A stretch of 58,143 nt of DNA, taken from positions 1 through 58,143 of the IMG/VR virus record IMGVR_UViG_3300014656_000033, one strand, 5' to 3'. The notes below the pieces were generated by a model. The model had not been told where the DNA came from and did not search any database. It saw only the letters and a list, made by a program, of their open reading frames with translations. Source of the stretch: a virus. Taxonomy: Duplodnaviria > Caudoviricetes. Made by a program: the position numbers and the translations under genes. Positions 164 to 46,747 of the stretch are shown here, piece by piece (positions within the stretch are counted from its first letter, which is position 1; every line of letters starts with the position of its first letter).

Positions 164-381
164 TGTCCGTAATGCGCTGCGAACAGTGTGAACGAACGAT
201 AGATACCGATTACGACCTCGGCATCTGGATCAACGCGCCCGCGCTGCGGGGCTATGATTTCTTCGTCTGCGGGCCGGAATGCGCCGATGAATGGTTAGCA
301 GAACACGGATTCGAGTCCATGCCAGAGGACTACGACGGCGCGGACGTGCTGGAAGCGAAAACGAAGGAGGCAAACCAATGA
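163..381 (+). CDS. small Cys-rich hypothetical protein
   Basis: CEQC and CGPEC motifs; GGAGG RBS; TAATG stop/start overlap. Confidence 0.7.
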
Positions 382-869
382 AGATCACAGCAAAAATGGT
401 GAGAGAACACGGGGCCTGTTACGATCCGGTAATTCCTAACGGCCAGCCGGAGGGGTTCGAGCTTTTCGAAGAAACAGACGAAATCGAGTTGGTTGATTTG
501 ATGGATGTTTATACGATTCCACGCATTGATCGGATATGGCTGTTCACGACTTTTGCAGACACAGACGATGTTGTTTTGTTTGCTGAAATGTGCGCCGAAT
601 CCGCCGCCTGTTACGCCGCATGGGCCGCAGGGGTTGCAGGGGACGCAGTGAACGCAAGGAACGCCGCAAGGGCCGCAAGGGACGCACGGGCAGCCGCATG
701 GTACGCAGGGGACGCCGCATGGGCCGCAGGGGACGCACGGGCAGCCGCAAGGGACGCCGCATGGGCCGCAGGGGTTGCAGGGGACGCAGTGAACGCAAGG
801 AACGCCGAACTCGAATTCCAGCTATGGCTAATCGCTATTATTTTGAGAAAAACAGGAGCTAACCAATGA
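378..869 (+). CDS. Ala-rich repeat protein (AAWAAGDA repeats), paralogue of the junction gene
   Basis: Likely start ATG 378 after AAGGAGG; [14 protein letters not shown]...RIWLF...FAEMCAE followed by repeats. Confidence 0.75.
613..807 (+). repeat. Ala-codon repeat tract with an exact 54-bp duplication (613-666 and 754-807)
   Basis: acgccgcatgggccgcaggggttgcaggggacgcagtgaacgcaaggaacgccg occurs twice, 141 bp apart. Confidence 0.9.
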
Positions 870-3216: not shown

Positions 3217-3240
3217 AACAGCCCCCGCGTCCGGAGGCTG
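3211..3240 (-). terminator. intrinsic terminator ending the minus-strand late operon
   Basis: Minus strand cagcctccg-gacg-cgggggctg then ttttattt; two more hairpins at 3245-3261 and 3266-3280, the last with a plus-strand T-tract. Confidence 0.75.
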
Positions 3241-3288: not shown

Positions 3289-3666
3289 TTATATCCCCAA
3301 AATCCCCTTCCGTAATTTCCTGAATACCCGACACGCTTGTTTGCGCGGGTTGTTATCGGGATGAGTTGTTAAGAGTTCCTTGACCACTGCCGGAGCCGTG
3401 GCGATATCCAGCCTCGTGCCGTCCGTAATTGCAGATATAATCGGGGCTGCTTCCGCCCGGACTTCGCCCAATTCGTCGAATATATCTTCCATCCCGACTT
3501 TAGCTTTCCGCACAGTTTCGAGCGCGAAGTCAATGTCTTTTTGTGACAGCACGTCGAATTTCCGCAGTAACGCAACCACAATCACCAGCACGCCCGACGC
3601 AAAGCCGAGCAGCGCCGTCAGGACTTGCGGCTCAAGCAAAAGACTACCCAGTTTTTCCATGTTCAA
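3289..3666 (-). CDS. membrane protein (N-terminal TM), possible holin/lysis accessory
   Basis: VLTALLGFASGVLVIVVALLRK hydrophobic helix, basic C-terminus. Confidence 0.55.
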   Translation of the reverse strand: MNMEKLGSLLLEPQVLTALLGFASGVLVIVVALLRKFDVLSQKDIDFALETVRKAKVGMEDIFDELGEVRAEAAPIISAITDGTRLDIATAPAVVKELLTTHPDNNPRKQACRVFRKLRKGILGI

Positions 3667-4943
3667 TCCCCCCTATATACTATTGGTTTTGGTCTTTTCC
3701 ACGGCGGCTGTAATTGAATCGGGTTCCGCCACGTTATACCGAATTTTTCATGTACTGAAAATAGTTGCTGCATTGGGAAGCTCGCGCTCTGACATTTTAT
3801 CAGCGCGTGTTCATCCGGCCCATCCCACGAGCCATTAGCGAAAATCTCCCCCCGAATATCGGCTATCTGGTGAAAGTGCCCGACACAGTAATAATTGACG
3901 GGCAATCCGTATTCCGCAAGCGTCTGGATATAACGTCCACGCGCCCGCTCCAGGCCATAAAAAGGCACCCCCATCCACGACACAGTATTGTCGCCGTGGC
4001 CCAACTGAAAAACCTTGTTATACATCCCAACAAAACAAAACAGAGATTCGGGAATATAAAAATGTACATTTTTAAAATCCCTTAACCGCTCTTTGAGGAA
4101 ATGATAAAAAATATAACTCCATGAATCCGCTGGTCGCCGAGCGCCCTTTTTGCCTACCCGGTCATGGTTGCCGGGGACACCGAATATATTGATTTTCCAC
4201 GGTAGCGATACTGCGAGGTCGCCGATTATTTTACCAAAAGCATCGACGCCCTCAATCATTTGCCGCCCAGCTTCAAGGTCGCGCCTGAGTATCACGCCTT
4301 CCGGCAGTGTGGGGTCGCCGCCCTGCATTAAGTCGCCAAGCATAAACATATTGAGGATTTTATATGGCGTGGTCGGATAGTGTTTCGCAAGTATTTTTTT
4401 AAATGATTCAAGATAAAATTCTGACCGTTGTTTAAATACATCGATATTGTAAAGCCCAATTCCAGTTGTTTCGTCGGCGCGGGTGTCTTTGCCGATGTGC
4501 ATATCTGACAGGAGCGCCGTTAGGATTTCGTCACCCTGTTCTTCGTTGAACTTTATCGGCACCGGTTTGATTTCCGGCACCGGCATCGGGGTCACGATGT
4601 CGCGCAATCCTTCAATCAGCAATTCCGCAAGTGCGCGTTTGCGGATGGCTTCGTTTTCGTGTTTCTGCAATACTGATTTTTTTATGCGGAGTATTTCCTC
4701 GGCAAGCGGCTCGGCTTCGTCTGGTTCTATGCCATCTGGTTTGAGTATGAATTTTTTATTGCGGCCCTCGCCGGGTAACGGCTTGCCGGTTTTAATACAA
4801 GACAGTATTGATTGAACACGCCACACTTCTGAATCTGGTAGCTTTAATGTTGCGGTCAATTTGCGATAGCCGTATGATGGGTGTTTTTCGTGGCCAGCAA
4901 CGATTATTCTTTCAAGTTCTTTTTGTTCTATTCTTTTTGGCAC
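3663..4943 (-). CDS. calcineurin-like metallophosphoesterase with N-terminal HTH-like region
   Basis: SDMHIG, GDLMQG, PGNHDR, GHGD, GHFH metal-binding motifs. Confidence 0.9.
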   Translation of the reverse strand: MPKRIEQKELERIIVAGHEKHPSYGYRKLTATLKLPDSEVWRVQSILSCIKTGKPLPGEGRNKKFILKPDGIEPDEAEPLAEEILRIKKSVLQKHENEAIRKRALAELLIEGLRDIVTPMPVPEIKPVPIKFNEEQGDEILTALLSDMHIGKDTRADETTGIGLYNIDVFKQRSEFYLESFKKILAKHYPTTPYKILNMFMLGDLMQGGDPTLPEGVILRRDLEAGRQMIEGVDAFGKIIGDLAVSLPWKINIFGVPGNHDRVGKKGARRPADSWSYIFYHFLKERLRDFKNVHFYIPESLFCFVGMYNKVFQLGHGDNTVSWMGVPFYGLERARGRYIQTLAEYGLPVNYYCVGHFHQIADIRGEIFANGSWDGPDEHALIKCQSASFPMQQLFSVHEKFGITWRNPIQLQPPWKRPKPIVYRGD

Positions 4944-4946
4944 TAC

Positions 4947-5228
4947 TCACCGCCTTTTAAGATAGTTTATTTTTTGGATACAGCCTCGCGGAATAATCGT
5001 TATGCTTGATGCGTTTTCCAGAATGGAACTAATGCTGCCGATAATAACAGCATATTTTTTATCGAGGATTAAGAGATAGCCGGTTGTTTTGTGTAGAAGT
5101 TCATCGGGTTTAACTATGATGGATTCGATGTCAACCCAGCCCGATTCAGAGGAAAGTATGTCTTCCCATTCAACCTCTACCAGTTTAAGTTTGTTTATTT
5201 TAATCGGTTTCGGTTCTGGCTTGTTCAT
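4947..5228 (-). CDS. conserved small phage protein (VEVEWED...GW...TTGYL family)
   Basis: Motif pattern common in phage proteins; in operon order. Confidence 0.65.
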   Translation of the reverse strand: MNKPEPKPIKINKLKLVEVEWEDILSSESGWVDIESIIVKPDELLHKTTGYLLILDKKYAVIIGSISSILENASSITIIPRGCIQKINYLKRR

Positions 5229-5499
5229 CCTTCACCGCCTTTAATAACAGAAAAATACCTGCCAAATCGTCAACAGTATCCTCGATATCGCCGTCAAAAT
5301 TATTCGCCAGCCGCGCCAGCTTATCTAATCCGCGCATCAAAAACGGCAGAAAATCATAAGCCTCAACCGGAATCCCATCGGGAAACAACACTAACAGTAA
5401 AGCCGGTATTTTTTTCGGCGTGTTTTCACCGTAATATTTGGCTTTTTCATTCAGGAGTGCCGCCACGTCTGCGGCGGCTTGATTGAAATCTAACGGCAT
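5200..5499 (-). CDS. nucleotide modification associated domain 1 (DUF1599-like, MazG-fold) protein
   Basis: K..YYG, MRGLDKLARL, EDTVDDLAG pattern. Confidence 0.7.
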   Translation of the reverse strand: MPLDFNQAAADVAALLNEKAKYYGENTPKKIPALLLVLFPDGIPVEAYDFLPFLMRGLDKLARLANNFDGDIEDTVDDLAGIFLLLKAVKDEQARTETD

Positions 5500-5545
5500 A
5501 ATCGCCTCAATTACCTACAACTATAACCAAAATCACCCGCGTTTG

Positions 5546-6781
5546 TCAATATCGCCCCAGTTCCGCCAGCACTTTCGCGCTGAGTTTCATTCCTGAAACC
5601 ATAGCGTGAACCATCACGCCGGGTTTGCCGCCCTGATAAATACCCTTGTGCAACGTCGCATCCGGGGCCAGTTCGCATAAATTCGAGTATCCAGCATCGA
5701 AAGCCTCGTCCGATCCGGGCGTGTCCAGCGCCTCGGCCCCCGCTACAATCACCATACAGCCCGCTTGGGCGGTTTTTAGATCAAACCCGCCGCACAGCAC
5801 TGTTCTGGGAAGATCATCGCGTACAGCGCGTCTGACGGCCTCTGACGTGGCTTCTGTGGCTGCGGCTCGCCCCATGATGGCGAAGCCATGCACTCGGCAT
5901 ACATTGGCCCAGTTCGCGGCATCGAGGGCGGCGATTGGGGAGGATTGGGTAGAAACACGGTTAAAGAAGTGCCATTCTTCGGCAATGCGGTCATTTATGA
6001 ACGCCCATTTATTCGAGGCTGTGATATATCGGCGGTAACGGGCTTCCATGAATTCGTTATCGGCGACGATGATGTTGGCCACTTGCTTGGATTCTGCGAA
6101 GTTTTGCAGCCCTTGCAGCACTTCCCTTGCATTATTGGCTATACCCGTCACTTTTCTTTCAACCTTGCCGGGCAGCGCCACGACAACGGAAATCCGCTCG
6201 CCAGCCGGAACTTTGTCGCCCTTATAGTCCCGGATATGTTCATTGACGTAACGGGCTGCCAACGCAACGGCCCCGGCCAGCGCCCCGCCTCCGGTGCCGC
6301 CGCCAGCGCCGAGCGTAATTACTATCTGATCGATGTCGCCCCATGTCCGTTCGGCCATCTCGTAAACCTCGTCGCGGTGGGCGTCGAACGCCGCCGCCCC
6401 TGCCGCCATATCCTTACCAGCGCCACCGCCTTCGGCTGATCGCAACAATAGTTTCTGGCTGTTCGGAAGGTTGACGTCCTTCAGGTCTTGGTCGGCGGTA
6501 TTTACAGCCACGCCCCGGCTGTATTTGAGCCGCGCCATTGCTTCCCACACGCGCCCGCCCGCGCCGCCGAGGGCAAGTCCGCCTACCTTAATCGAGCCAC
6601 TGGATTCATCTATGGGCGCAATCGGGGCCGCATCGGGCAGGTCATACGTGCCGAGGTCAAGGCCGTCGTCGGGCAGTTGTTCGGTATTTCCGAACTGTTC
6701 AGATTCCAACCGCAAAGGATTACTCAGTAGTTCGTTTTCCTGAATTGCGGGTATTTCCTGATTGAGATTTTCTTCTGCCAT
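5546..6781 (-). CDS. tubulin/FtsZ-superfamily GTPase with acidic N-terminal extension
   Basis: T1 LGGAGG, T2 AVNT, T3 GGGAGKD, T4 signature GAGGGTGGG, T5 ALP..VE, T6 ADNE; GGAGG RBS. Confidence 0.92.
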   Translation of the reverse strand: MAEENLNQEIPAIQENELLSNPLRLESEQFGNTEQLPDDGLDLGTYDLPDAAPIAPIDESSGSIKVGGLALGGAGGRVWEAMARLKYSRGVAVNTADQDLKDVNLPNSQKLLLRSAEGGGAGKDMAAGAAAFDAHRDEVYEMAERTWGDIDQIVITLGAGGGTGGGALAGAVALAARYVNEHIRDYKGDKVPAGERISVVVALPGKVERKVTGIANNAREVLQGLQNFAESKQVANIIVADNEFMEARYRRYITASNKWAFINDRIAEEWHFFNRVSTQSSPIAALDAANWANVCRVHGFAIMGRAAATEATSEAVRRAVRDDLPRTVLCGGFDLKTAQAGCMVIVAGAEALDTPGSDEAFDAGYSNLCELAPDATLHKGIYQGGKPGVMVHAMVSGMKLSAKVLAELGRY

Positions 6782-6811
6782 GATTTATCCCTCCAATTTT
6801 GTTTTTTATAT

Positions 6812-6840
6812 TTGACTTATTGCAAGCATATGCTTATAAT
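6812..6840 (+). promoter_or_regulatory. sigma70-type promoter antisense to the endolysin gene
   Basis: TTGACT-17bp-TATAAT containing the palindrome AAGCATATGCTT. Confidence 0.65.
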
Positions 6841-6919
6841 GAAATAAAGGCGGGTGATAAAAATGACGTTTCAAAGAGGGCATATATTGCTCTCGAAAAT
6901 GTTGGAAAGAATCTCATCA

Positions 6920-7324
6920 TTAGCCCCGCCATCGTGCTTTTTCACCCCTTACGTCAACGTGGGTCCAGACACCATAACGCCCCACGCCGCCACGGTCGCC
7001 CACGAGTGCCTCGCAATAATCTGCGACAACGCCCGGTATTATATCTTTTACTTTTATGTCGGCGGCGTTAGCGACTTTCCTTTTAGTTCCGGGTAACTCG
7101 CGGGGAAGATGCTGCGAGTATTGACTGCCCTTTTGTAGTCGGTTCCAATGTTCACATCGACACCCCGACGTTATGGTTACTGGCTTGCCAAAGTGTTCCC
7201 GGACAGCCTCTAATACATATAGCAATGCGGGGTTTATATCATCGAACCCGCACCCCCCACAGCGGCAAGCAATCTCATGTTTTGAAAAGTGTGGACTTAA
7301 ATCTCCCATTATAATTACCGCCAT
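6920..7324 (-). CDS. endolysin, peptidase M15A family
   Basis: HFSKHEIACRC, ITSGCRC, SQH, AADI, GVGRY, WTHVDVRG motifs. Confidence 0.9.
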   Translation of the reverse strand: MAVIIMGDLSPHFSKHEIACRCGGCGFDDINPALLYVLEAVREHFGKPVTITSGCRCEHWNRLQKGSQYSQHLPRELPGTKRKVANAADIKVKDIIPGVVADYCEALVGDRGGVGRYGVWTHVDVRGEKARWRG

Positions 7325-7530
7325 TTCTCCGTTTCGACACGGTGTCCCTTAAATGTCCCGTTCGGCCTTTTCTTTTCCCGCACTTTAAATATACGGGGTT
7401 TTGAACTAAAGCGCAAACAGTACGGACATTTATCAACATACGGGTCTATCAATTCGGCCCCGCAATCGCAGTATTCAGGCCGTACTATCAACGATTCAAA
7501 ATCAAGTTCTGGCTTCATTGATACGCTCAT
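7315..7530 (-). CDS. small zinc-ribbon protein
   Basis: CDCG...CPYC; coupled to neighbours. Confidence 0.55.
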   Translation of the reverse strand: MSVSMKPELDFESLIVRPEYCDCGAELIDPYVDKCPYCLRFSSKPRIFKVREKKRPNGTFKGHRVETEKWR

Positions 7531-7814
7531 TTAATGTATGCTATTATTGCGTCTTTCAGAAATGTAATTAGCGCAAAAACAAAAGTTAGAGCGCCGGTTA
7601 CTTTCAGCGTCCACGCCTTGAGGTTGTCAACGTCGCTATCTATCTTTTTTAAATCGACGCCGTTGTGCCGGTTGCGACAATCGCCGAGATGCTTATTGAT
7701 GCGCTCGTGGACGTTGCCTATCTTTTCGTCAATATTGGTGCCGAGCCTATCAATCTTGTCGATGATCGCCATCGTGTCTTTGTTGTCGCTCTGGTAGTTG
7801 TCTGGCAGCGTCAT
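7527..7814 (-). CDS. putative holin (coiled coil plus C-terminal TM)
   Basis: C-terminal hydrophobic helix; between tail fibre and endolysin. Confidence 0.6.
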   Translation of the reverse strand: MTLPDNYQSDNKDTMAIIDKIDRLGTNIDEKIGNVHERINKHLGDCRNRHNGVDLKKIDSDVDNLKAWTLKVTGALTFVFALITFLKDAIIAYIK

Positions 7815-7825
7815 GTTGGCCTCCC

Positions 7826-9988
7826 TTACAACAGCGCCGGTATCAGCCCGGCGTTGATTCTGGTTTTTATGATGTCGTCTTCCGTACCGCCGAAATATAT
7901 ATCTCTATAAACCTTGTTGTTGTTCTGGTCTTTGAACTGTATGCGGTAATGCGTCAGCGTCGTCGGCTGCGTGGTGATGTTCGTGGTTGACCAGTACCAC
8001 TGCGCGGTTCCGGCCTTCTGTGTTGCTGTCGCGCTGGTAAGCGTTTCGGTACTGCCGTCGTCTTTATAAAGCGTCGCTGTCACGCTGGTCGCGTCGTCCG
8101 GCATGGTGCCCCAGACGGTGAAGTAACACGCGCATTTCGCATACGTCGGGAAGAACATCGGGCCTTCTGCTTCCTCGCTGTAGTCGGGACTGGTCTCGCG
8201 GGCATAGGCGAACGAGATTGACAGATTAACAATGCCCAGCGCCACCGCGCCGGCGGGATTCGTTATTTTGACCTGTATGATGTCGTTTCCATTCAAGCCG
8301 CACGAAATACCGCTGATGTCCTCCGGGGTGGTCATTACAGTCCACGCCGACCACGAACTGCCGTTGTCTGTGCTGTAGCGATACTCAAATACGGGCGTGT
8401 TCCCGGCAGCACCGAGGTTCCACGAAACGGTATCCCACGCCGCCACATCCCACGGCTGGACTTCGGGGAAGGTCACTGTCCCGCCCGCTGCTGCTATGGT
8501 AATCGATCCGGCTGTGGTGTCTCCAAAATCTACAGTTCCGGTTGTGGTGAAGTCGGAATCGTTCCACGGCGAGCAGGGAAAATATATGTTACAGGTCTTA
8601 TTCGATGCGTGGTTCTTGTAAATCAGCGGTTCGTTGCCGCGCCATAAGGTTTCAAAAGAAAACTCCGCCCCATTATCTCTGATGGATATACTTTTTGTTC
8701 CGGTCTTTTGATACGTTACATCCTGACTGTATGTCATTCTAAATCCCGTTGTGCCGTCCCTGATAATCAGACTGCCGCCGAAATGCTTGAACCCAAAGAA
8801 CGCAGAGTAAAATCCGTAAGCTGACGAATAAGCGTCCCACTTTCCGCCGTGAAGTTCACAGCTATTCAAACACCCTATCCCGATATAGGTTGTCGAAACG
8901 CCGTTCAGCGTTCCCCCGGAATGCGACCAGAAAACAAGCCGCGAACCAATATTGCTACCGGAAGTCCCAGTTGCGGTCCCGCCGTTCATCGTGACGTTAT
9001 TTCCATATATCCCAAAATTGGTAGAGCTTGTTCCACTGATGGTGCCTGCATTCATAATCATGGCGAATGTTACAAGGCCATAGCTGCTTGTCGAAGTCCC
9101 GGTTGCGGTTCCGTTATTGAATAGAACTTGCTGAAAATATATCCCGGCACCCGACGTGGATGTGCCGACGAATGTGCCGCCATCGATATATCCATCAAGC
9201 AAATAAATAGCATAAGAATTTGATGCCGTAGCGGTTATTGTTCCTGTGGTCGATGGGAAGTTGACGCTCTGGCCATACAAGCCCCAATTTCCGCTCGGCA
9301 CGTTTGTGATGTCAATATTGCCGATAGTAAATTGAGCCTTGCGCATTACGTTGACAATGGACATGTTTAACGAACCTTTGAATGTCGCGCTATACTGTCC
9401 ACAAAAATCAAATGTGCAGTTATTCAAACCTCCTATGTCGGAAAATGTGCTGTTGCCACTAATATAGACGTAACATTCCTTGCCGGATGCACCCTGTATC
9501 ATGCAGTCTTTGCTTGCCGAACTTGTGCCCGTCATGCTGAACTTACCATCGCTATTGACGTATATGCCGCCCGCGAATTGAGTGAGTAGACCATAATAAA
9601 TCTTTGTGCTTTTTTGCAGATTGATTTCCGCCGTGTTCGCATTAGAAACAGTGATAACCGGATTGGTCGTCCCGTCCCCCATCCAGAGGACTTTCGCGTT
9701 CGCGTTCGCGTCTGACGGGCTGGACAACAGGCCGGTGACGGTAATGTTGCCGATGGAGAACGCGCTGGTGAATCCCGCCGCCCATGCAAGCTCGCCGCCG
9801 AGGTTGATCACGCCTGCGCCGACGATAGCGGGCAAACTGGTCACGCCCCACGGCATCGTGACGACGTGGGTATTGGCGATAGTCCATGTGTCATTGACAC
9901 CCGATACCCCGTCGCCGGGATAACCGCCGCCGCCCCACGTTGCCGCGTTGTTCCAATTGCCGCTACCTGTTGACGTGAACGCCGCCAT
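7826..9988 (-). CDS. tail fibre/spike with beta-helix repeats
   Basis: GNWNNAATW N-terminal motif, repeated GTSTSxxGI units, position after tail genes. Confidence 0.75.
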   Translation of the reverse strand: MAAFTSTGSGNWNNAATWGGGGYPGDGVSGVNDTWTIANTHVVTMPWGVTSLPAIVGAGVINLGGELAWAAGFTSAFSIGNITVTGLLSSPSDANANAKVLWMGDGTTNPVITVSNANTAEINLQKSTKIYYGLLTQFAGGIYVNSDGKFSMTGTSSASKDCMIQGASGKECYVYISGNSTFSDIGGLNNCTFDFCGQYSATFKGSLNMSIVNVMRKAQFTIGNIDITNVPSGNWGLYGQSVNFPSTTGTITATASNSYAIYLLDGYIDGGTFVGTSTSGAGIYFQQVLFNNGTATGTSTSSYGLVTFAMIMNAGTISGTSSTNFGIYGNNVTMNGGTATGTSGSNIGSRLVFWSHSGGTLNGVSTTYIGIGCLNSCELHGGKWDAYSSAYGFYSAFFGFKHFGGSLIIRDGTTGFRMTYSQDVTYQKTGTKSISIRDNGAEFSFETLWRGNEPLIYKNHASNKTCNIYFPCSPWNDSDFTTTGTVDFGDTTAGSITIAAAGGTVTFPEVQPWDVAAWDTVSWNLGAAGNTPVFEYRYSTDNGSSWSAWTVMTTPEDISGISCGLNGNDIIQVKITNPAGAVALGIVNLSISFAYARETSPDYSEEAEGPMFFPTYAKCACYFTVWGTMPDDATSVTATLYKDDGSTETLTSATATQKAGTAQWYWSTTNITTQPTTLTHYRIQFKDQNNNKVYRDIYFGGTEDDIIKTRINAGLIPALL

Positions 9989-25923: not shown

Positions 25924-27207
25924 TCACCCCACTGTATTTCGAGATTCCATCAACAATGTATAGTGCGGATGGCACGCTATTTTATCGCAATTTGTTTTCG
26001 TTATAAACAAATCCTTTTCAATATTTTCGGGAATTGGTTCTACTGGTTTGAAATACTGTAGTAATATTGGATAGATAGCAACCCCGCCTTCTCCATCCAT
26101 ATAACTCCTCGTGCCAATCAAAAGATATTGGGTAATCTCCGAGAAATCCTTAAGGAAGTCGTGTATGGTGGCTATCGGGATGTGTTGTAAAACCAGAATG
26201 GCAACCACAACATCATATTTGTTACGCTTTATCAATTCCCAATCCGACGTTATTAGTCGAGGCTTTATGCTTGCGTGTTGTTGCGCCATATTTGTCATAT
26301 TGGGCAAATCGTATGCGTCGAATGTTGAAAAGTGTTTTTGCATAAATGGGAAATTCCTACCTATTCCGCAACCAAAATCGAGAGCCGTTTTGCAATCCTT
26401 AATTACATCGAATCTGCTGTCGCCGGAAAGGTCTATCGATTCAAAGCTATCGCCGTTCTTGTAGCTACTTATAATTGCCTTCTTTGCATTTTCAATATCA
26501 TTGAAGCTTGCCCATCTTAAATAACGGCGTTTTTCTTCAGCTTGTATTCTTGTTACGACATCAATTATATTTTTCTTTTCAAATATACTGCTGAGTTGTC
26601 GTTGAGAGCATTGTGTTACAACCGGAAGCCTACCGCTTACGCTCCACGCCTTTGATATTCCTTCCCACGGAGCAATATAATTTATCATGTCTGTTATACA
26701 GGGGCTTTCGTCTTTTCTATTGTGCCAATACCTGTTTTCGCCAACAAGTCCACCATCAAACCCAATAAGAACAATACTATTAAAATTCATTCTGGCGCAC
26801 AAATCAAACACAGCAAGACCAGAGTTTCCGTAAACGAGCGCGTTGGGTTCTGGATGATCGAAGCTTTTCTTTTGACCGTCAAACCACACGTTTATCTTTT
26901 CGAAGGCATCAACGACGTTTTTCTCGATGTGTTCGCGCATACCTTCAGATTGAGCTTGCAACACATATTCCGCATTAACATGCTTGTAAAGGTTGGTTGT
27001 GACATCGATGTTTCCAGATATATCAGCGGATAGCCACATATCTGTTTTTCCAATATATTCAGCAGCGGTATTGATAGATATTGTGACATCAAATAATGAT
27101 TTCCATTCTGGTTTGAAATCCAACAGGGACGGCCCTGACGCAAAAACAACGCACGACCTGTTGTTATATTTCGCTGCATGATCATTTATGAATTCTGATA
27201 GTTGCAT
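25924..27207 (-). CDS. Maf/MptE-like (sialyltransferase-like fold) domain fused to class I SAM methyltransferase
   Basis: ASGPSL, SINTA, GNSG, IVLIGFDG; then ALDFGCGIGRN and VLQHI. Confidence 0.75.
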   Translation of the reverse strand: MQLSEFINDHAAKYNNRSCVVFASGPSLLDFKPEWKSLFDVTISINTAAEYIGKTDMWLSADISGNIDVTTNLYKHVNAEYVLQAQSEGMREHIEKNVVDAFEKINVWFDGQKKSFDHPEPNALVYGNSGLAVFDLCARMNFNSIVLIGFDGGLVGENRYWHNRKDESPCITDMINYIAPWEGISKAWSVSGRLPVVTQCSQRQLSSIFEKKNIIDVVTRIQAEEKRRYLRWASFNDIENAKKAIISSYKNGDSFESIDLSGDSRFDVIKDCKTALDFGCGIGRNFPFMQKHFSTFDAYDLPNMTNMAQQHASIKPRLITSDWELIKRNKYDVVVAILVLQHIPIATIHDFLKDFSEITQYLLIGTRSYMDGEGGVAIYPILLQYFKPVEPIPENIEKDLFITKTNCDKIACHPHYTLLMESRNTVG

Positions 27208-29780
27208 TATATAGCCATCTCCAATCTGTAATTTTTCATTACTGCGTCCCGCAAAACAGCATCAAATAGTTTTCCAACAGCCCCTATGGAATACTGGGCC
27301 TGTATTGTTTTCCTTGCTTCTTTTCCCATTTTGTGTAGTGCTTTTCTGTTTTCATAAGCGTGCCTCATGCTTTTTTTTGCTTGCATTATGTCGGGAACCG
27401 CCCAGCATTGTTCTCCATCATAACACGACCACATCATGCTATGAACTGGTTCTAAAATATAACCTATCGGATAAGAGTTTTTTTCAGTAAGATAATCCTC
27501 GCAGGCATAAAAGTTTGTGGCTATTACTGGCTTCTCGCAAGCCATAGCCTCAGCGATAGGCAGCCCAAAGCCTTCGCCGCGATGCAATAAAACAAAACAA
27601 TCGCCGGAATTATGTAGATCGAGCATTTCGCTTCCATCAAGTAATGTTGTTACTAATTCAACCTCAGGATATTCATGCGGGGATGATTTTGCCGATAGCG
27701 GAAAGGCCAGCCTTAGTTTGTAAAATTCATCCATCAGTTTTTTCGTCTCAGCTTCCGACGTATTCCCCCTGTATGTCTTAATCACCAACTTTACATCATT
27801 GTTGTTTTTGAACTCACTCCAATAAGCTCGCAATAAACCCTGCGGGTTTTTTCTTTCAAGCCACTGGAATATAGAATAAAATACAAACTTACCGCTTGTG
27901 TCTTTTTGTTGTGTTGCCTTGAAATAATCCGTATCTATTGCGTGCCCTATAACGACAACGGGTGTTTTTATTCCGGCTTCTTTGATAATCTTTTTTTGAA
28001 AGTTGCTTGGAACAAGCAATATATCTACTGAAGTCAACGCATCAACCCAGTCGTTGGGTATCATGGTTGTTTCCCATGCAAAATACAGTAGGTTTGGTAT
28101 GCTTTCGGAAAGTTCTTTTTTGTATATTTCGCCCACTACACTGGGTATCATTTGAAAGATTCTTACATCCGGCTTTATTTTTTTGTCTAAACACCGATAT
28201 ATTATTTCTTCCTCTTTCCCTAAATCAGGCCTCTGCTGTCCATCGAAATTATGGTGTTTACATGAAACATTATGCCCGACCAAGTCAAGAGCAATTATAT
28301 TTTTTCTTGTCGCCGAAGCATATCCTGACGGATCAAGGATGGGGCCAATGTATTCAATGTTCAAAGCGTCGGGCGCATATGTTCTGATTATTGGTTCTGA
28401 CTTTTTGATTTCAACTATTGACTTTACAGTGGTCGGAACAAACTTGATCTTCCTCTTCCCGCCGCGCATTTCAACCACCTTTTCCGCCACCATCTCAGCC
28501 GTAATCGACGCCATGCAAGGAGCCGGAAGGTGTTTCGGCCCGATAACGTCGATGCAATTCCCGCGCTCCCAATCAAAACACGGGTATTTCAAGCACGTCC
28601 CCACTGGCGGCACCATCGCATCAACGGTCGGGTAATACGCGATCCGGTATTCTGGCGGCATGTTCCCGAATATCGCTACCGTCGGGACGTACTGAGAGGC
28701 CGCAATATGTAGCAATCCGGTATCCGGGGTCACCACAACAGCGCATTCACGGATTAGAGTTGCCGCTTCCCGGATAGTTAGGGTGCCGGTAGTGTTTATT
28801 ACGCGCCCGCCCAGAGCCTCCCAGTCGCGCCGTGTTGCGTCAAACAGCACAGGGACGTATCCACGCACCGTTAAGTCATAAACTAACGCCTCGTAATGAA
28901 CCTCCGGCCAGCACCGGGTATCAGATACGGCGCTTAGAACCACGCCGATATAACCTTTTTTAGCAGGACAGGCCGCAAGGTATTGTTTAGCCCATTGTAT
29001 TTCGTCGTCGGCCAGCGGCATATCCGGCGCGAAATCTTCCGTTCCTTCTGGAATTACTACGCCGCAAGCCTCGGACAATATGTCTTGGCGGTTTTTATCG
29101 AAGCGTTCACCGGAGCGCTCTGGTACTGAGTTGAGTTCATACACAGCGTCGAAAACTTCCTCAATGCCCGGATAAACTATGCCCCACGGCCATTTGACGG
29201 GTTTGCCGAGGTTATTGATGTCAATCACGCCGTCGATGTAGTTGTGCGTTATTTCTTCCTCGAATTTATTGGCTGCGCTGACTGGCTCGAAGTCGCGCCG
29301 CTTGATTAGTTGTTTAAATAGATTAAGATTCAGCCGCGTCGTTGGCTTGTCTTTGTATATTCGTCCTATTCCCAACGTCGGCATATCAAGGGATGGCGAA
29401 TCGCCCCTATAGACTACCCGCGTGTCCGCGATACTCCTAAACAACCCCGCGTGCGTGACGGTTGTTGCGAACCAAACAACTGTCCCGGCTCCGTACTTGG
29501 CTTTTATCAATTCCGGTATTCTCGAACACATCAGCACGTCGCCGAGCCCACCGCTCCTAATTATCAGGAAGGCTTTCGGATACGATAACAGCGCCTTCAT
29601 TACGGCTGGGCGGTTCTGTTTGCCTTTTTCTCTGTTGGATAGATTAAAACAGTGTGTTTTAAATTCATGCGGCGGCAAACATGCCCGAATATCATCAATG
29701 CGGGCATTTACTTCCTGTTCCGCCCCCTCAACTATGCTGTAGTCGATTTCCATTGTAGTGAAAGATGGGCGGGGGGCCAA
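27207..29780 (-). CDS. bifunctional glycosyltransferase: GT9 (heptosyltransferase-like) fused to GT4
   Basis: GLGDVL, RCWP, PDTGLLHIAA, VPTVAIFG (GT9); SGYA, AWET, RKN, EGFGLPIAEAMAC (GT4). Confidence 0.9.
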   Translation of the reverse strand: MAPRPSFTTMEIDYSIVEGAEQEVNARIDDIRACLPPHEFKTHCFNLSNREKGKQNRPAVMKALLSYPKAFLIIRSGGLGDVLMCSRIPELIKAKYGAGTVVWFATTVTHAGLFRSIADTRVVYRGDSPSLDMPTLGIGRIYKDKPTTRLNLNLFKQLIKRRDFEPVSAANKFEEEITHNYIDGVIDINNLGKPVKWPWGIVYPGIEEVFDAVYELNSVPERSGERFDKNRQDILSEACGVVIPEGTEDFAPDMPLADDEIQWAKQYLAACPAKKGYIGVVLSAVSDTRCWPEVHYEALVYDLTVRGYVPVLFDATRRDWEALGGRVINTTGTLTIREAATLIRECAVVVTPDTGLLHIAASQYVPTVAIFGNMPPEYRIAYYPTVDAMVPPVGTCLKYPCFDWERGNCIDVIGPKHLPAPCMASITAEMVAEKVVEMRGGKRKIKFVPTTVKSIVEIKKSEPIIRTYAPDALNIEYIGPILDPSGYASATRKNIIALDLVGHNVSCKHHNFDGQQRPDLGKEEEIIYRCLDKKIKPDVRIFQMIPSVVGEIYKKELSESIPNLLYFAWETTMIPNDWVDALTSVDILLVPSNFQKKIIKEAGIKTPVVVIGHAIDTDYFKATQQKDTSGKFVFYSIFQWLERKNPQGLLRAYWSEFKNNNDVKLVIKTYRGNTSEAETKKLMDEFYKLRLAFPLSAKSSPHEYPEVELVTTLLDGSEMLDLHNSGDCFVLLHRGEGFGLPIAEAMACEKPVIATNFYACEDYLTEKNSYPIGYILEPVHSMMWSCYDGEQCWAVPDIMQAKKSMRHAYENRKALHKMGKEARKTIQAQYSIGAVGKLFDAVLRDAVMKNYRLEMAI

Positions 29781-45316: not shown

Positions 45317-46747
45317 TTATGTTAAAATTTTAGGGCTCCCTTTCGTTCCGTTACGAAATATTAACGCTTGTTCTACCGTTGTGCAATCGGGGTGCACACC
45401 TTCAATATGCCACAAATTTACAGACGGGTTTCGCATTTTTAAGTACGGGCGTTTTTGATTATCGCCTGTGTCTAACAACAACAAATCGTAGTGTTCCCGC
45501 GAATCAAGCACTTTCGCGTCAAGTTCGAGACATATCCTTTCAATGCCGACTTTTCTAACAAACTCGCGCCGCGCTTCAGCATTTTTTATCTCGTGTATTT
45601 TTGCTGCCGAGATGTTTTTGTGTGGCGTTTCGGCCAACCACTGTGGAACGACCACGTTATTTAGTTTCCATATAGCAAAACCATCTTTAAAAAGGATGGC
45701 TGGGGCACCTTCGCAATGAACCTGTCCAGTAGTGTTCCGGTGTATGTTAATGGGATTACGACAAACAATGCACAAGCCATTATATTGCAAAGATTCCGAA
45801 ACGCCGGAACGTAGAATTTTTAGCCACATATTAAAATTATCATGCTTTAAAATCCCTATGCGTGAAAAACAATCATAAAATGCCGTCCAGCTATAATCTG
45901 ATAAATTAAAATAAGCCCCCACGGAAGCCTCCACGGAATCCCACACGGAAGCCTCCGCGGAATCCCTCACGGAATCCCTCACGGAAGCCCTCACGGAATC
46001 CCTCACGGAAGCCTCCACGGAATCCCACACGGAAGCCTCCACGGAATCCCACACGGAATCCCTCACGGAAGCCTCCACGGAATCCCTCACGGAATCCCAC
46101 ACGGAAGCCCTCACGGAAGCCCTCACGGAATCCCTCACGGAATCCCTCGCGGAAGCCATCACGGAATCCCACACGGAATCCCTCACGGAAGCCTCCACGG
46201 AATCCCTCACGGAATCCCTCACGGAAGCCTCCACGGAATCCCTCACGGAATCCCTCACGGAAGCCATCACGGAATCCCACACGGAAGCCTCCGCGGAATC
46301 CCCCACGGAAGCCCTCACGGAAGCCATCACGGAATCCCCCACGGAATCCCACACGGAAGCCCTCACGGAATCCCTCACGGAAGCCATCACGGAAGCCTCC
46401 ACTGAAGCCATCACGGAATCCCACACGGAAGCCCTCACGGAATCCCACACGGAATCCCTCACGGAAGCCTCCACTGAAGCCATCACGGAATCCCACACGG
46501 AAGCCCTCACGGAATCCCTCACGGAAGCATTAAGCATTATCTTTGAAATTAAAAATCCAGACAATAGACTATCGGCAACAACTACTTTTGGCTCGGATAA
46601 TCCGCACATACCATATAATTTACAAGCCGCAGTTATCATGCAGTTGTCGCTATGTTTTTCATCGTCCCATACGGCAGCGTTAATCCATTCGTCCCTAACG
46701 ACGGCCATGAGTTTTATTTCTGATTCAGATAGATGTCTCTTTTTCAT
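45317..46747 (-). CDS. DUF6745-like protein with internal SVxD/SVxA tetrapeptide repeats
   Basis: [33 protein letters not shown] motifs. Confidence 0.85.
45915..46526. repeat. 12-bp tandem array, about 51 units
   Basis: Units such as cacggaatccct / cacggaagcctc / cacggaatccca encoding S-V-[RWMEG]-[DA]. Confidence 0.95.

Follow-up and report, generated by a model that had tools for sequence, protein, structure and literature searches.

Tubulin-superfamily GTPases of phages have, to our knowledge, been studied in two settings only: the PhuZ spindles of jumbo phages that form a nucleus, and the TubZRC system by which phage c-st is partitioned. In this superfamily, the GTPase site of a subunit is completed by the T7/H8 acid (D212 in FtsZ) of its neighbour in the filament, and this acid activates the hydrolytic water. 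E254 of alpha-tubulin is catalytic, and beta-tubulin has a lysine at that position. Both PhuZ and c-st TubZ keep the catalytic acid, as is seen from the engineered mutants D190A of PhuZ and E200A of c-st TubZ. The virus record IMGVR_UViG_3300014656_000033 (Caudoviricetes), whose full length of 58,143 bp is called the window here, carries a tubulin-like gene at 5546..6781 on the minus strand. Its product, P0001, comprises the nucleotide-binding loops of the superfamily and has an asparagine, Asn290, at the place of the catalytic acid. This suggests a protein that may form filaments and hydrolyse GTP poorly.

The E. coli FtsZ mutant D212N is described as 'defective for GTPase activity' yet forms protofilaments (PMC3573117), and elsewhere it served as a mutant 'that forms stable filaments' (PMC12754632). 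In c-st TubZ, the E200A exchange in the catalytic loop is reported to leave assembly possible, with 80% of the subunits GTP-bound, compared with 4% in the wild type (PMC5322520). Phages with chimallin and PhuZ are given genomes of 200-324 kb (PMC12625630), and PMC7824862 treats the tubulins of jumbo phages only. The words 'phage' and 'viral' are absent from the main text of a 2023 family survey (PMC9871819), the supplements of which might list viral sequences. The literature search found no functional or comparative description of the clade to which P0001 belongs, and no natural T7 asparagine variant in a phage tubulin.

The tubulin-like gene and its product

The gene is an open reading frame (ORF) of 411 codons with an ATG start. 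It lies on the minus strand, a point missing from the original prediction. The translation contains LALGGAGGR (T1, residues 69-77), AVNTA (92-96), GGGAGKD (T3, 118-124), the tubulin signature loop GAGGGTGGG (T4, codons 158-166, at 6284..6310 on the minus strand), ADNE (240-243), and ALDAANW (T7/H8, 285-291). Glycines 161, 162, 164, and 166 are invariant in a 46-sequence alignment. P0001 matches Pfam Tubulin (PF00091) at E 1.1e-9 and 39.3 bits, the cut-off being 33, and a six-frame Pfam search of the whole record finds the same ORF at 39.6 bits. PHROGs has no family for it.

The AlphaFold2 (AF2) model of P0001, built on 46 relatives, has a mean predicted local distance difference test score (pLDDT) of 91.1 and a predicted template modelling score (pTM) of 0.86. 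Residues 1-50 are its sole poorly defined part (pLDDT 43-60). Because of the Pfam match and the confident model, P0001 is not regarded as a chance ORF. The model comprises the two-domain tubulin fold, with a Rossmann-like GTPase domain, helix H7, and a C-terminal activation domain. All 708 aligned PDB chains, which had been pre-selected by Foldseek, score Z of at least 8 against it, and the rows listed are TubZ, CetZ, or FtsZ chains, each aligned over residues 61-411. By motifs, Pfam match, and model, P0001 is classified as a tubulin/FtsZ-superfamily GTPase with all nucleotide-binding loops present, as had been predicted. A complex prediction with two copies of P0001 and GTP returned a score of 0.00, which counts neither for nor against self-association.

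The T7 loop and Asn290

The T7 loop and the start of helix H8 lie at 5912..5923 on the minus strand and read D-A-A-N (codons 287-290). The first T7 aspartate is kept as D287, and the catalytic acid is replaced by Asn290. In the HMMER alignments, LDAANW of P0001 stands opposite FDASEF of RepX and, in a second stretch that is not significant alone, opposite LDFADL of FtsZ. The family profile places sfDaaDy opposite FDAsEF of RepX and vDfaDv of M. jannaschii FtsZ. In E. coli numbering, we take D287 to be the FtsZ D209 position and N290 the D212 position, and the original prediction had read both residues in this way by eye. Residue 290 falls in the first turn of model helix 288-295, as expected for H8.

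A MAFFT alignment of 155 sequences (P0001-P0155), of which 151 cover the T7 column, has D in 124, E in 21, N in 3, and K, A, and S in one each at this position, with 4 gaps. An acid is therefore present in 145 of the 151 (about 96%), and P0001 is an exception to the conservation that was to be checked in homologues. The six non-acidic sequences are P0001 and P0002 (Asn), P0099 (Asn), P0019 (Lys), P0048 (Ser), and P0044 (Ala), the last of which is without the first T7 aspartate as well. D or E was also read in 52 of the 53 copies from fetched loci, which may overlap the cluster representatives in these counts; the remaining copy, in locus L047, contains a large insert and is ambiguous.

A FastTree phylogeny was computed, after 10 fragments had been dropped, from the 145 sequences with a coverage of 75% or more over the 368 trimmed columns. 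P0001 and P0002, which are 64% identical and both have Asn at T7, form a clade with support 1.0, and the Asp-bearing P0007 is their sister with support 0.991. Since P0007 carries Asp, Asn290 is read from the tree as a derived state, and it has persisted through the divergence of P0001 and P0002 to 64% identity. Among the other 153 sequences, 60 columns are at least 90% conserved by residue class, and P0001 keeps 54 of them. This argues that the gene is under constraint and not decaying, with a remodelled active-site neighbourhood. The six departures are G70A, G86K, D290N, L295C, V308A, and P401S, of which three are identical in P0002. At the 80% conservation level, the T1-loop glutamine is also replaced (Q73G), a change common to P0001 and P0002.

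Four groundwater-metagenome runs, which belong to three studies, yielded contigs identical to the tubulin region; two of these runs are possible sources of the record. Contigs of run X3 agree fully with the record at the Asn codon (5912-5914), though this lies only 4-6 bases from the contig end; X3 belongs to a study other than that of the possible source runs, and X1 and X2, which also cover the codon, may be the source. Because identical contigs occur in four runs of three studies, Asn290 is not a sequencing error. Outside the study that is the likely source, groundwater runs contain the stretch 4900-8000 in identical form at low depth, which shows that the phage recurs in groundwater. A degenerate DNA pattern around the Asn290 motif found 27 matching stretches in viral contigs, and 0/27 encode a tubulin relative.

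Predicted activity

P0001 would bind GTP and polymerise head-to-tail. Asn290 stands in for the acid that a subunit inserts into the GTP pocket of its neighbour, a pocket that appears otherwise kept. The protein would then assemble and hydrolyse GTP slowly or not at all, and its filaments would be poorly dynamic and would not treadmill. Assembly with slow turnover is expected because FtsZ D212N and c-st TubZ E200A behave in this way. By this analogy, P0001 is read as an assembly-competent, hydrolysis-poor former of long-lived filaments, a tentative reading to which slightly less than an even chance is given. A hydrolysis-poor filament had been proposed from the start, and by analogy with FtsZ D212N it is still the best-supported molecular reading (PMC3573117, PMC12754632). 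In the infected cell, such filaments may provide a static scaffold or track by which phage DNA or particles are organised. What C-terminal tails do in FtsZ, TubZ, and PhuZ, as adaptors or between subunits, could be done in this clade by the conserved acidic peptide at the N-terminus.

A wider proposal is possible but doubtful. It holds that the clade is a third phage-tubulin clade, represented here by a GTPase-dead polymer in a mid-sized, non-jumbo phage. The polymer would be a static scaffold lasting until lysis and addressed via the acidic N-terminal peptide, and the scattered N, K, S, and A variants at T7 would be repeated dynamic-static switches.

P0001 offers a natural experiment on the catalytic T7 residue, as the mutation with which laboratories freeze FtsZ filaments has become fixed in a phage lineage and was maintained there by selection. 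A comparison of P0001 with its N290D form and with an Asp-bearing relative would show whether the function of the clade needs filament turnover.

N- and C-terminal regions

Codons 1-62 (6596..6781, minus strand) encode an acidic, mostly disordered extension with 15 Asp and Glu and 1 Lys or Arg, as judged by composition, pLDDT, and family motif. Among the 155 sequences, the extension before strand S1 has a median of 58 residues and is at least 40 residues long in 100. Extensions of at least 30 residues are net negative in 100 of 131. A motif consists of a hydrophobic residue and proline at P0001 positions 36-37 and of an acid and a hydrophobic residue at 40-41; L, I, V, M, or F occurs in 123 and Pro in 93 of about 135 sequences. 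Asp is found at the place of P0001 position 58 in 93 sequences. These counts indicate that the acidic N-terminal extension is a clade-wide trait and not peculiar to the P0001 phage.

P0001 ends 2 residues past its last helix (402-409) and has no C-terminal linker, peptide, or tail. Tails in the clade are mostly short, with a median of 9 residues after position 409 and at least 30 in 41 of the 155. The acidic extension of about 60 residues and the lack of an FtsZ-like linker or peptide had both been predicted correctly.

A mostly viral clade of tubulins

A HMMER search of 1.84 billion cluster representatives gave 492 relatives at E <= 1e-3, 261 at E <= 1e-10, and 51 at E <= 1e-30, and the last 51 align over about residues 40-410 of P0001. 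Relatives are mostly 25-35% identical to P0001. The single close one, P0002, is 64-66% identical and sits on a 12-kb contig. The nearest ESM-Atlas clusters are 87-100% viral (Uroviricota), judged from few labelled members. The best BFVD match is a protein of an uncultured Caudovirales phage labelled 'FtsZ', with a template modelling (TM) score of 0.77 and 28% identity. An example of the clade in UniProt is A0A6J5RW92, labelled 'FtsZ Cell division GTPase' and likewise from an uncultured Caudovirales phage. By these matches, P0001 is assigned to a large, mostly viral clade without a name. The original prediction of an undescribed system stands in that no functional study was found, and it falls short in that the clade is large and has generic database labels. 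P0001 shares with the clade the N-terminal extension and the GAGK T3 loop, of which K123 is Lys in 132 of 149 sequences, and differs from it as one of the 6/151 without the T7 acid.

The 46-sequence alignment was too diverse for a locus scan, and a 6-sequence alignment was used for viral contigs. It found 49 loci on contigs of 4 to 241 kb. A metagenome scan with an alignment of P0001 and P0002 found 7 loci, all distant (24-30%), and 0/7 have Asn. Metagenome-assembled genomes (MAGs) of Planctomycetota contain 3 loci, of which two are tandem pairs (L085:8001-10150 and L087:7948-10580) and the third, L086, has one copy. Both copies of the pairs keep D-x-x-D. Single-protein scans of viral contigs and, with P0002, of genome contigs found no confirmed relative, and DNA and tblastn searches of INPHARED phages found no close relative. 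In plasmids, the only match was a Planococcus 'plasmid replication protein', 24.6% identical over half of P0001.

The records of three relatives, of 39-78 kb at 22-39% estimated completeness, imply genomes near 175-200 kb, and for this reason the P0001 phage looks like a comparatively small carrier of a clade tubulin. A separate, very large tubulin-like clade circulates in uncultured phages, one of them well below jumbo size.

Of the relatives P0011 (821 residues) and P0017 (601 residues), one has a tubulin domain interrupted by an intein, matched by intein N- and C-terminal models, and the other is a tubulin fused to a sigma-54-activator-type AAA+ region. The tubulin copy at L047:7986-10112 is split by its large insert.

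Relation to TubZ, CetZ, FtsZ, and PhuZ

Profile-against-PDB scores and structural Z-scores stand in here for a phylogeny with named FtsZ, CetZ, TubZ, and PhuZ references. The best PDB sequence match of P0001 is RepX, the B. cereus TubZ (4ei7), at E 3e-11 over residues 66-301. As a single sequence, P0001 matches FtsZ chains in the N-terminal domain only, from E 5.5e-5. The profile of 46 relatives matches RepX at 6.2e-41, M. jannaschii FtsZ at 4.2e-28, and CetZ at 5.6e-26. The c-st TubZ (1.6e-22) and TubZ-Bt (2e-21) come below the archaeal FtsZ, and there is no PhuZ chain among the 60 profile matches listed.

Foldseek ranks TubZ-Bt and TubZ-Bc first (E about 4e-22, TM 0.70-0.73). The best structural alignment by VIA-align is to TubZ-Bc (4ei7_B), with Z 37.5 and a root-mean-square deviation of 2.2 A over 327 residues, followed by TubZ-Bt (2xka, Z 36.1), CetZ2 (Z 34.7), c-st TubZ (Z 31.7), and FtsZ (Z about 30). 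CetZ is within about 3 Z units of TubZ. In these structural alignments, identity to FtsZ chains is 19-24%. P0001 scores 37.6 bits against the FtsZ equivalog TIGR00065, for which the cut-off is 295.2. The modelled fold of P0001 is thus placed closest to TubZ, then CetZ; P0001 is not an FtsZ and probably not a PhuZ.

The alignment of P0001 to TubZ-Bt stops at chain residue 391. It has no match to Pfam TubZ_C (PF21493) at E <= 1, and the six-frame search has none at E <= 10. TubZ-like_C (PF22453) likewise has no match at either threshold, its six-frame search being a weak test as the control matched no genome. One ESM-Atlas neighbour cluster of P0001 carries CetZ_C.

Phage record and gene neighbourhood

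The record is linear, and CheckV estimates it as 69% complete; if this estimate holds, the full genome would be roughly 84 kb. PHROG and Pfam scans took in 40 ORFs. There is no sheath protein among these, which fits a siphovirus without proving one. 'Small siphophage', the wording of the original prediction, is too strong for a linear 58,143-bp fragment at 69%. Protein and six-frame Pfam searches find a single tubulin gene in the 58 kb, and integrase, resolvase, and ParB were not found there. The GC content of the tubulin gene is 57.7%, 1.4 standard deviations above the mean of 61 genes, and its GC at third codon positions (GC3) is within 1 standard deviation. A recent acquisition of the gene, considered on the basis of composition, was rejected on these two values.

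The gene belongs to a minus-strand array, which starts with a replication-initiator-like gene, two DNA methyltransferases, and an RNA ligase. The large terminase, portal, protease, major head protein, and two glycosyltransferase-like genes are next, followed by tail genes with a 1372-residue tape measure and by tail-fibre-like genes. A 95-residue ORF, a 71-residue Cys-rich ORF, a Peptidase_M15_3 endolysin, and a 138-bp spacer then lead to the tubulin gene. The array ends with a 99-residue acidic protein, a 93-residue protein, a metallophosphoesterase exonuclease, and a terminator-like hairpin.

The 95-residue ORF (7527..7814, minus strand) is a putative holin, with one C-terminal hydrophobic segment at about residues 68-95 (hydropathy windows > 1.6) and no Pfam or PHROG match. 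The endolysin (6920..7324, minus strand) lies directly upstream of the tubulin gene and matches Peptidase_M15_3 at E 1.5e-20 and phrog_894 at E 6.4e-30. Within the spacer (6782..6919), which has 31.9% GC, lie a strong ribosome-binding site, GGAGGG, and an imperfect palindrome of 22 nt (6819-6840). There are no direct repeats in it and no repeat array within 5100-7400, in line with the predicted absence of an adjacent TubR or centromere repeats. A consensus scan of the spacer found no minus-strand promoter-like or terminator-like site above threshold. The tubulin gene may be the last late gene or may have its own control. Of the predicted place in a lysis operon, the adjacency to the endolysin on the same strand holds; operon membership is not supported, given a 138-bp, 32% GC gap with a palindrome and distant relatives that lie in other modules.

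Promoter-like consensus matches in the region amount to 9 sites, compared with 7.1 expected. A near-consensus site on the plus strand at 6812-6840 (TTGACT, 17 nt, TATAAT; 11/12) overlaps the spacer palindrome and runs antisense into the endolysin. Another, on the minus strand at 5520..5549 (TTGACA, 18 nt, TATAGT; 11/12), is a consensus match that overlaps the tubulin stop codon, ahead of the next gene.

The first downstream gene (5200..5499, minus strand) encodes the 99-residue acidic protein, with a net charge of -8 and a match to phrog_1485. By Atlas features and structure, it is a helical, Nmad/DUF1599/DUF6378-like protein and not TubR-like. The second (4947..5228, minus strand) encodes the 93-residue protein and matches phrog_25889; its single-sequence AF2 model has pLDDT 44 and is unusable. 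The third (3663..4943, minus strand) encodes the SbcD/Mre11-like, metallophosphoesterase-type exonuclease (Metallophos E 9e-6, phrog_284 E 1.6e-31). The terminator-like hairpin at 3219..3240 (minus strand), with 9 pairs, 7 of them GC, and a T-run, is a consensus match that would end the array.

Other parts of the record have features of their own. Two glycosyltransferase/methyltransferase-like ORFs (427 and 857 residues) at 25924-29780 on the minus strand lie between head and tail genes, an unusual position that may point to virion glycosylation. The ORF 45317..46747 (minus strand) contains a 613-bp tandem array at 45916-46528, to which Tandem Repeats Finder (TRF) gives a period of 24, 25.5 copies, and 85% matches, with a 12-nt unit. 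The array encodes about 50 four-residue repeats (SVRD/SVWD/SVEA/SVMA) in a 476-residue protein, the C-terminal part of which matches phrog_31813. Tandem 9-nt repeats of the GCCGCAGGG type at 613-789 in ORF 291..869 (plus strand) encode Ala-rich, AAxDA-like sequence. The same repeat type at 2-107, the record start, suggests a paralogous, possibly cut, gene there.

Gene neighbourhoods of relatives

A portal-like protein is encoded within three genes upstream of the tubulin in 17 loci and directly upstream in 13, and in 13 of the 17 the large terminase lies further upstream. In 14 loci, a conserved protein of 90-98 residues is directly upstream of the tubulin; most of these also carry a recombinase and an HNH-like gene on the upstream side, with a DnaB-type helicase and primase on the downstream side. 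In L002, the nearest fetched relative (36% identity), the tubulin comes after baseplate and tail genes. The window proteins share no neighbour with the flanks of the 49 viral loci, bar one glycosyltransferase match, and phmmer searches of four small neighbours gave a best E of 0.024. Synteny with lysis genes, which had been looked for in homologues, is not family-wide, as the relatives lie in packaging, replication, and tail modules.

Small membrane or lipoprotein genes follow the tubulin in 14/44 loci, nearly all of one group (TerL-portal-tubulin). A hydrophobic segment is present in 27/93 small ORFs within three genes of the tubulin, compared with 24/179 farther off, the loci not being independent. 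In the portal group, loci L008, L009, L014, L020-L022, L024, L030, and others encode proteins of 60-100 residues with hydrophobic segments after the tubulin. One such protein has a lipobox and a weak Rz-like spanin match (E 0.003), which is the sole lysis label. A distant branch may have a lysis cassette beside the tubulin, as a lead rather than a finding. Lysis adjacency is not a family rule, and a loose tendency toward late-module ends is possible.

Alternative readings

Several points weigh against a hydrolysis-poor filament. The hydrolysis defect of P0001 is predicted by analogy with proteins outside its clade. Q73G and the five other changed conserved positions suggest that the active site may have been re-tuned and not crippled, and Asn can still hydrogen-bond water, so that with D287 kept some hydrolysis may be possible. 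As the record is about 69% complete, its missing part could encode a second tubulin or an adaptor. The consensus scan found no clear promoter for the tubulin gene. The neighbourhoods of relatives differ (packaging, replication, and tail ends) and give no consistent hint of a cellular role.

The first alternative is that Asn290 is tolerated or compensated, the substitution only tuning the rate of an ordinary dynamic cytomotive filament. P0001 retains D287 and every nucleotide loop, and Q73G (T1) and L295C (H8), both near the site and both present in P0002, could be compensatory. P0002 also has an Asp three residues on along H8 (ANWADV), whereas P0001 has no acidic residue between 288 and 296. 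The same D-to-N change is reported as GTPase-defective in E. coli FtsZ (PMC3573117, PMC12754632). With a column that is 96% acidic across the family, a tolerated Asn290 is considered unlikely, if worth keeping in mind.

An improbable second alternative is that P0001 is the non-catalytic member of a two-tubulin polymer, with the catalytic partner encoded in the missing third of the genome. Such a division of labour would resemble beta-tubulin with its Lys at the catalytic position, and relative P0019 has Lys at the T7 column. The 69% completeness of the record and the tandem pairs in two of three Planctomycetota MAG loci would fit as well. In contrast, the 58 kb hold one tubulin gene only, the Planctomycetota pairs keep D-x-x-D in both copies, and a second tubulin within about 8 kb occurs in 0/44 viral loci with a called ORF, bar the split, insert-bearing L047.

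A late-made, hydrolysis-dead subunit that co-assembles with host FtsZ, poisoning or capping it so that division is blocked before lysis, was part of the original prediction and is now held to be quite improbable. The gene is directly after the lysis genes, and T7-face mutants of FtsZ are dominant-negative in E. coli. Against this, P0001 is nearer to TubZ and CetZ, has 19-24% identity to FtsZ chains, reaches 37.6 of the 295.2 bits of the FtsZ equivalog cut-off, and has no FtsZ C-terminal peptide. FtsZ capping is also not the family function, because about 96% of relatives keep the catalytic acid and they sit in unrelated modules.

Least credible is a type III (TubZRC) partition motor that would segregate a plasmid-like prophage in the manner of Clostridium phage c-st. 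In its favour, TubZ/RepX supply both the closest solved structures and the top PDB sequence match. Against it, a cognate TubR or tubC was not found in the searched region, no iterons occur in the upstream gap or within 5100-7400, the endolysin takes the canonical upstream place of tubR/tubC, the downstream 99-residue protein is acidic and Nmad-like and not a DNA binder, there is no C-terminal tail, no Pfam TubZ_C match was found and no integrase, resolvase, or ParB in the 58 kb, and a hydrolysis-poor TubZ would be a poor partition motor, as the phenotype of TubZ D269A indicates.

Comparison with known systems

TubZ/RepX (pBtoxis TubZ-Bt, 2xka; B. cereus, 4ei7) gives the best sequence and fold match of P0001 over both domains, and its two-acid T7 spacing is the same as the family consensus. 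It differs in being only about 20-23% identical. P0001 has an acidic N-terminal extension instead of a TubZ tail, has Asn for the catalytic acid, and is without the tubR gene, the tubC iterons, and the long helix or tail at the C-terminus. TubZ/RepX belongs to a plasmid replication and partition locus, whereas the P0001 gene lies in a phage late region.

CetZ (PDB 4b45, 4b46, and 3zid) is the second-best fold, with Z 34.7, 33.3, and 31.1, and is also matched by the profile at 5.6e-26. CetZs are archaeal cell-shape proteins, whereas P0001 is viral and has no Pfam CetZ_C match.

PhuZ and c-st TubZ resemble P0001 as phage tubulin-superfamily GTPases, and their filaments are thought to move or position phage DNA or capsids. 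In contrast, PhuZ-labelled BFVD models reach TM 0.46-0.50 and 10-14% identity to P0001. The c-st TubZ works with TubR and TubY, neither of which is seen by the P0001 gene. The genomes of PhuZ phages are 200-324 kb, well above the P0001 record of 58 kb at an estimated 69%.

FtsZ D212N carries an identical exchange of Asp for Asn where its T7/H8 region aligns with residue 290. That mutation was made in the laboratory and affects a division protein, whereas the Asn of P0001 is natural, is kept in two proteins that are 64% identical, and belongs to a distant family.

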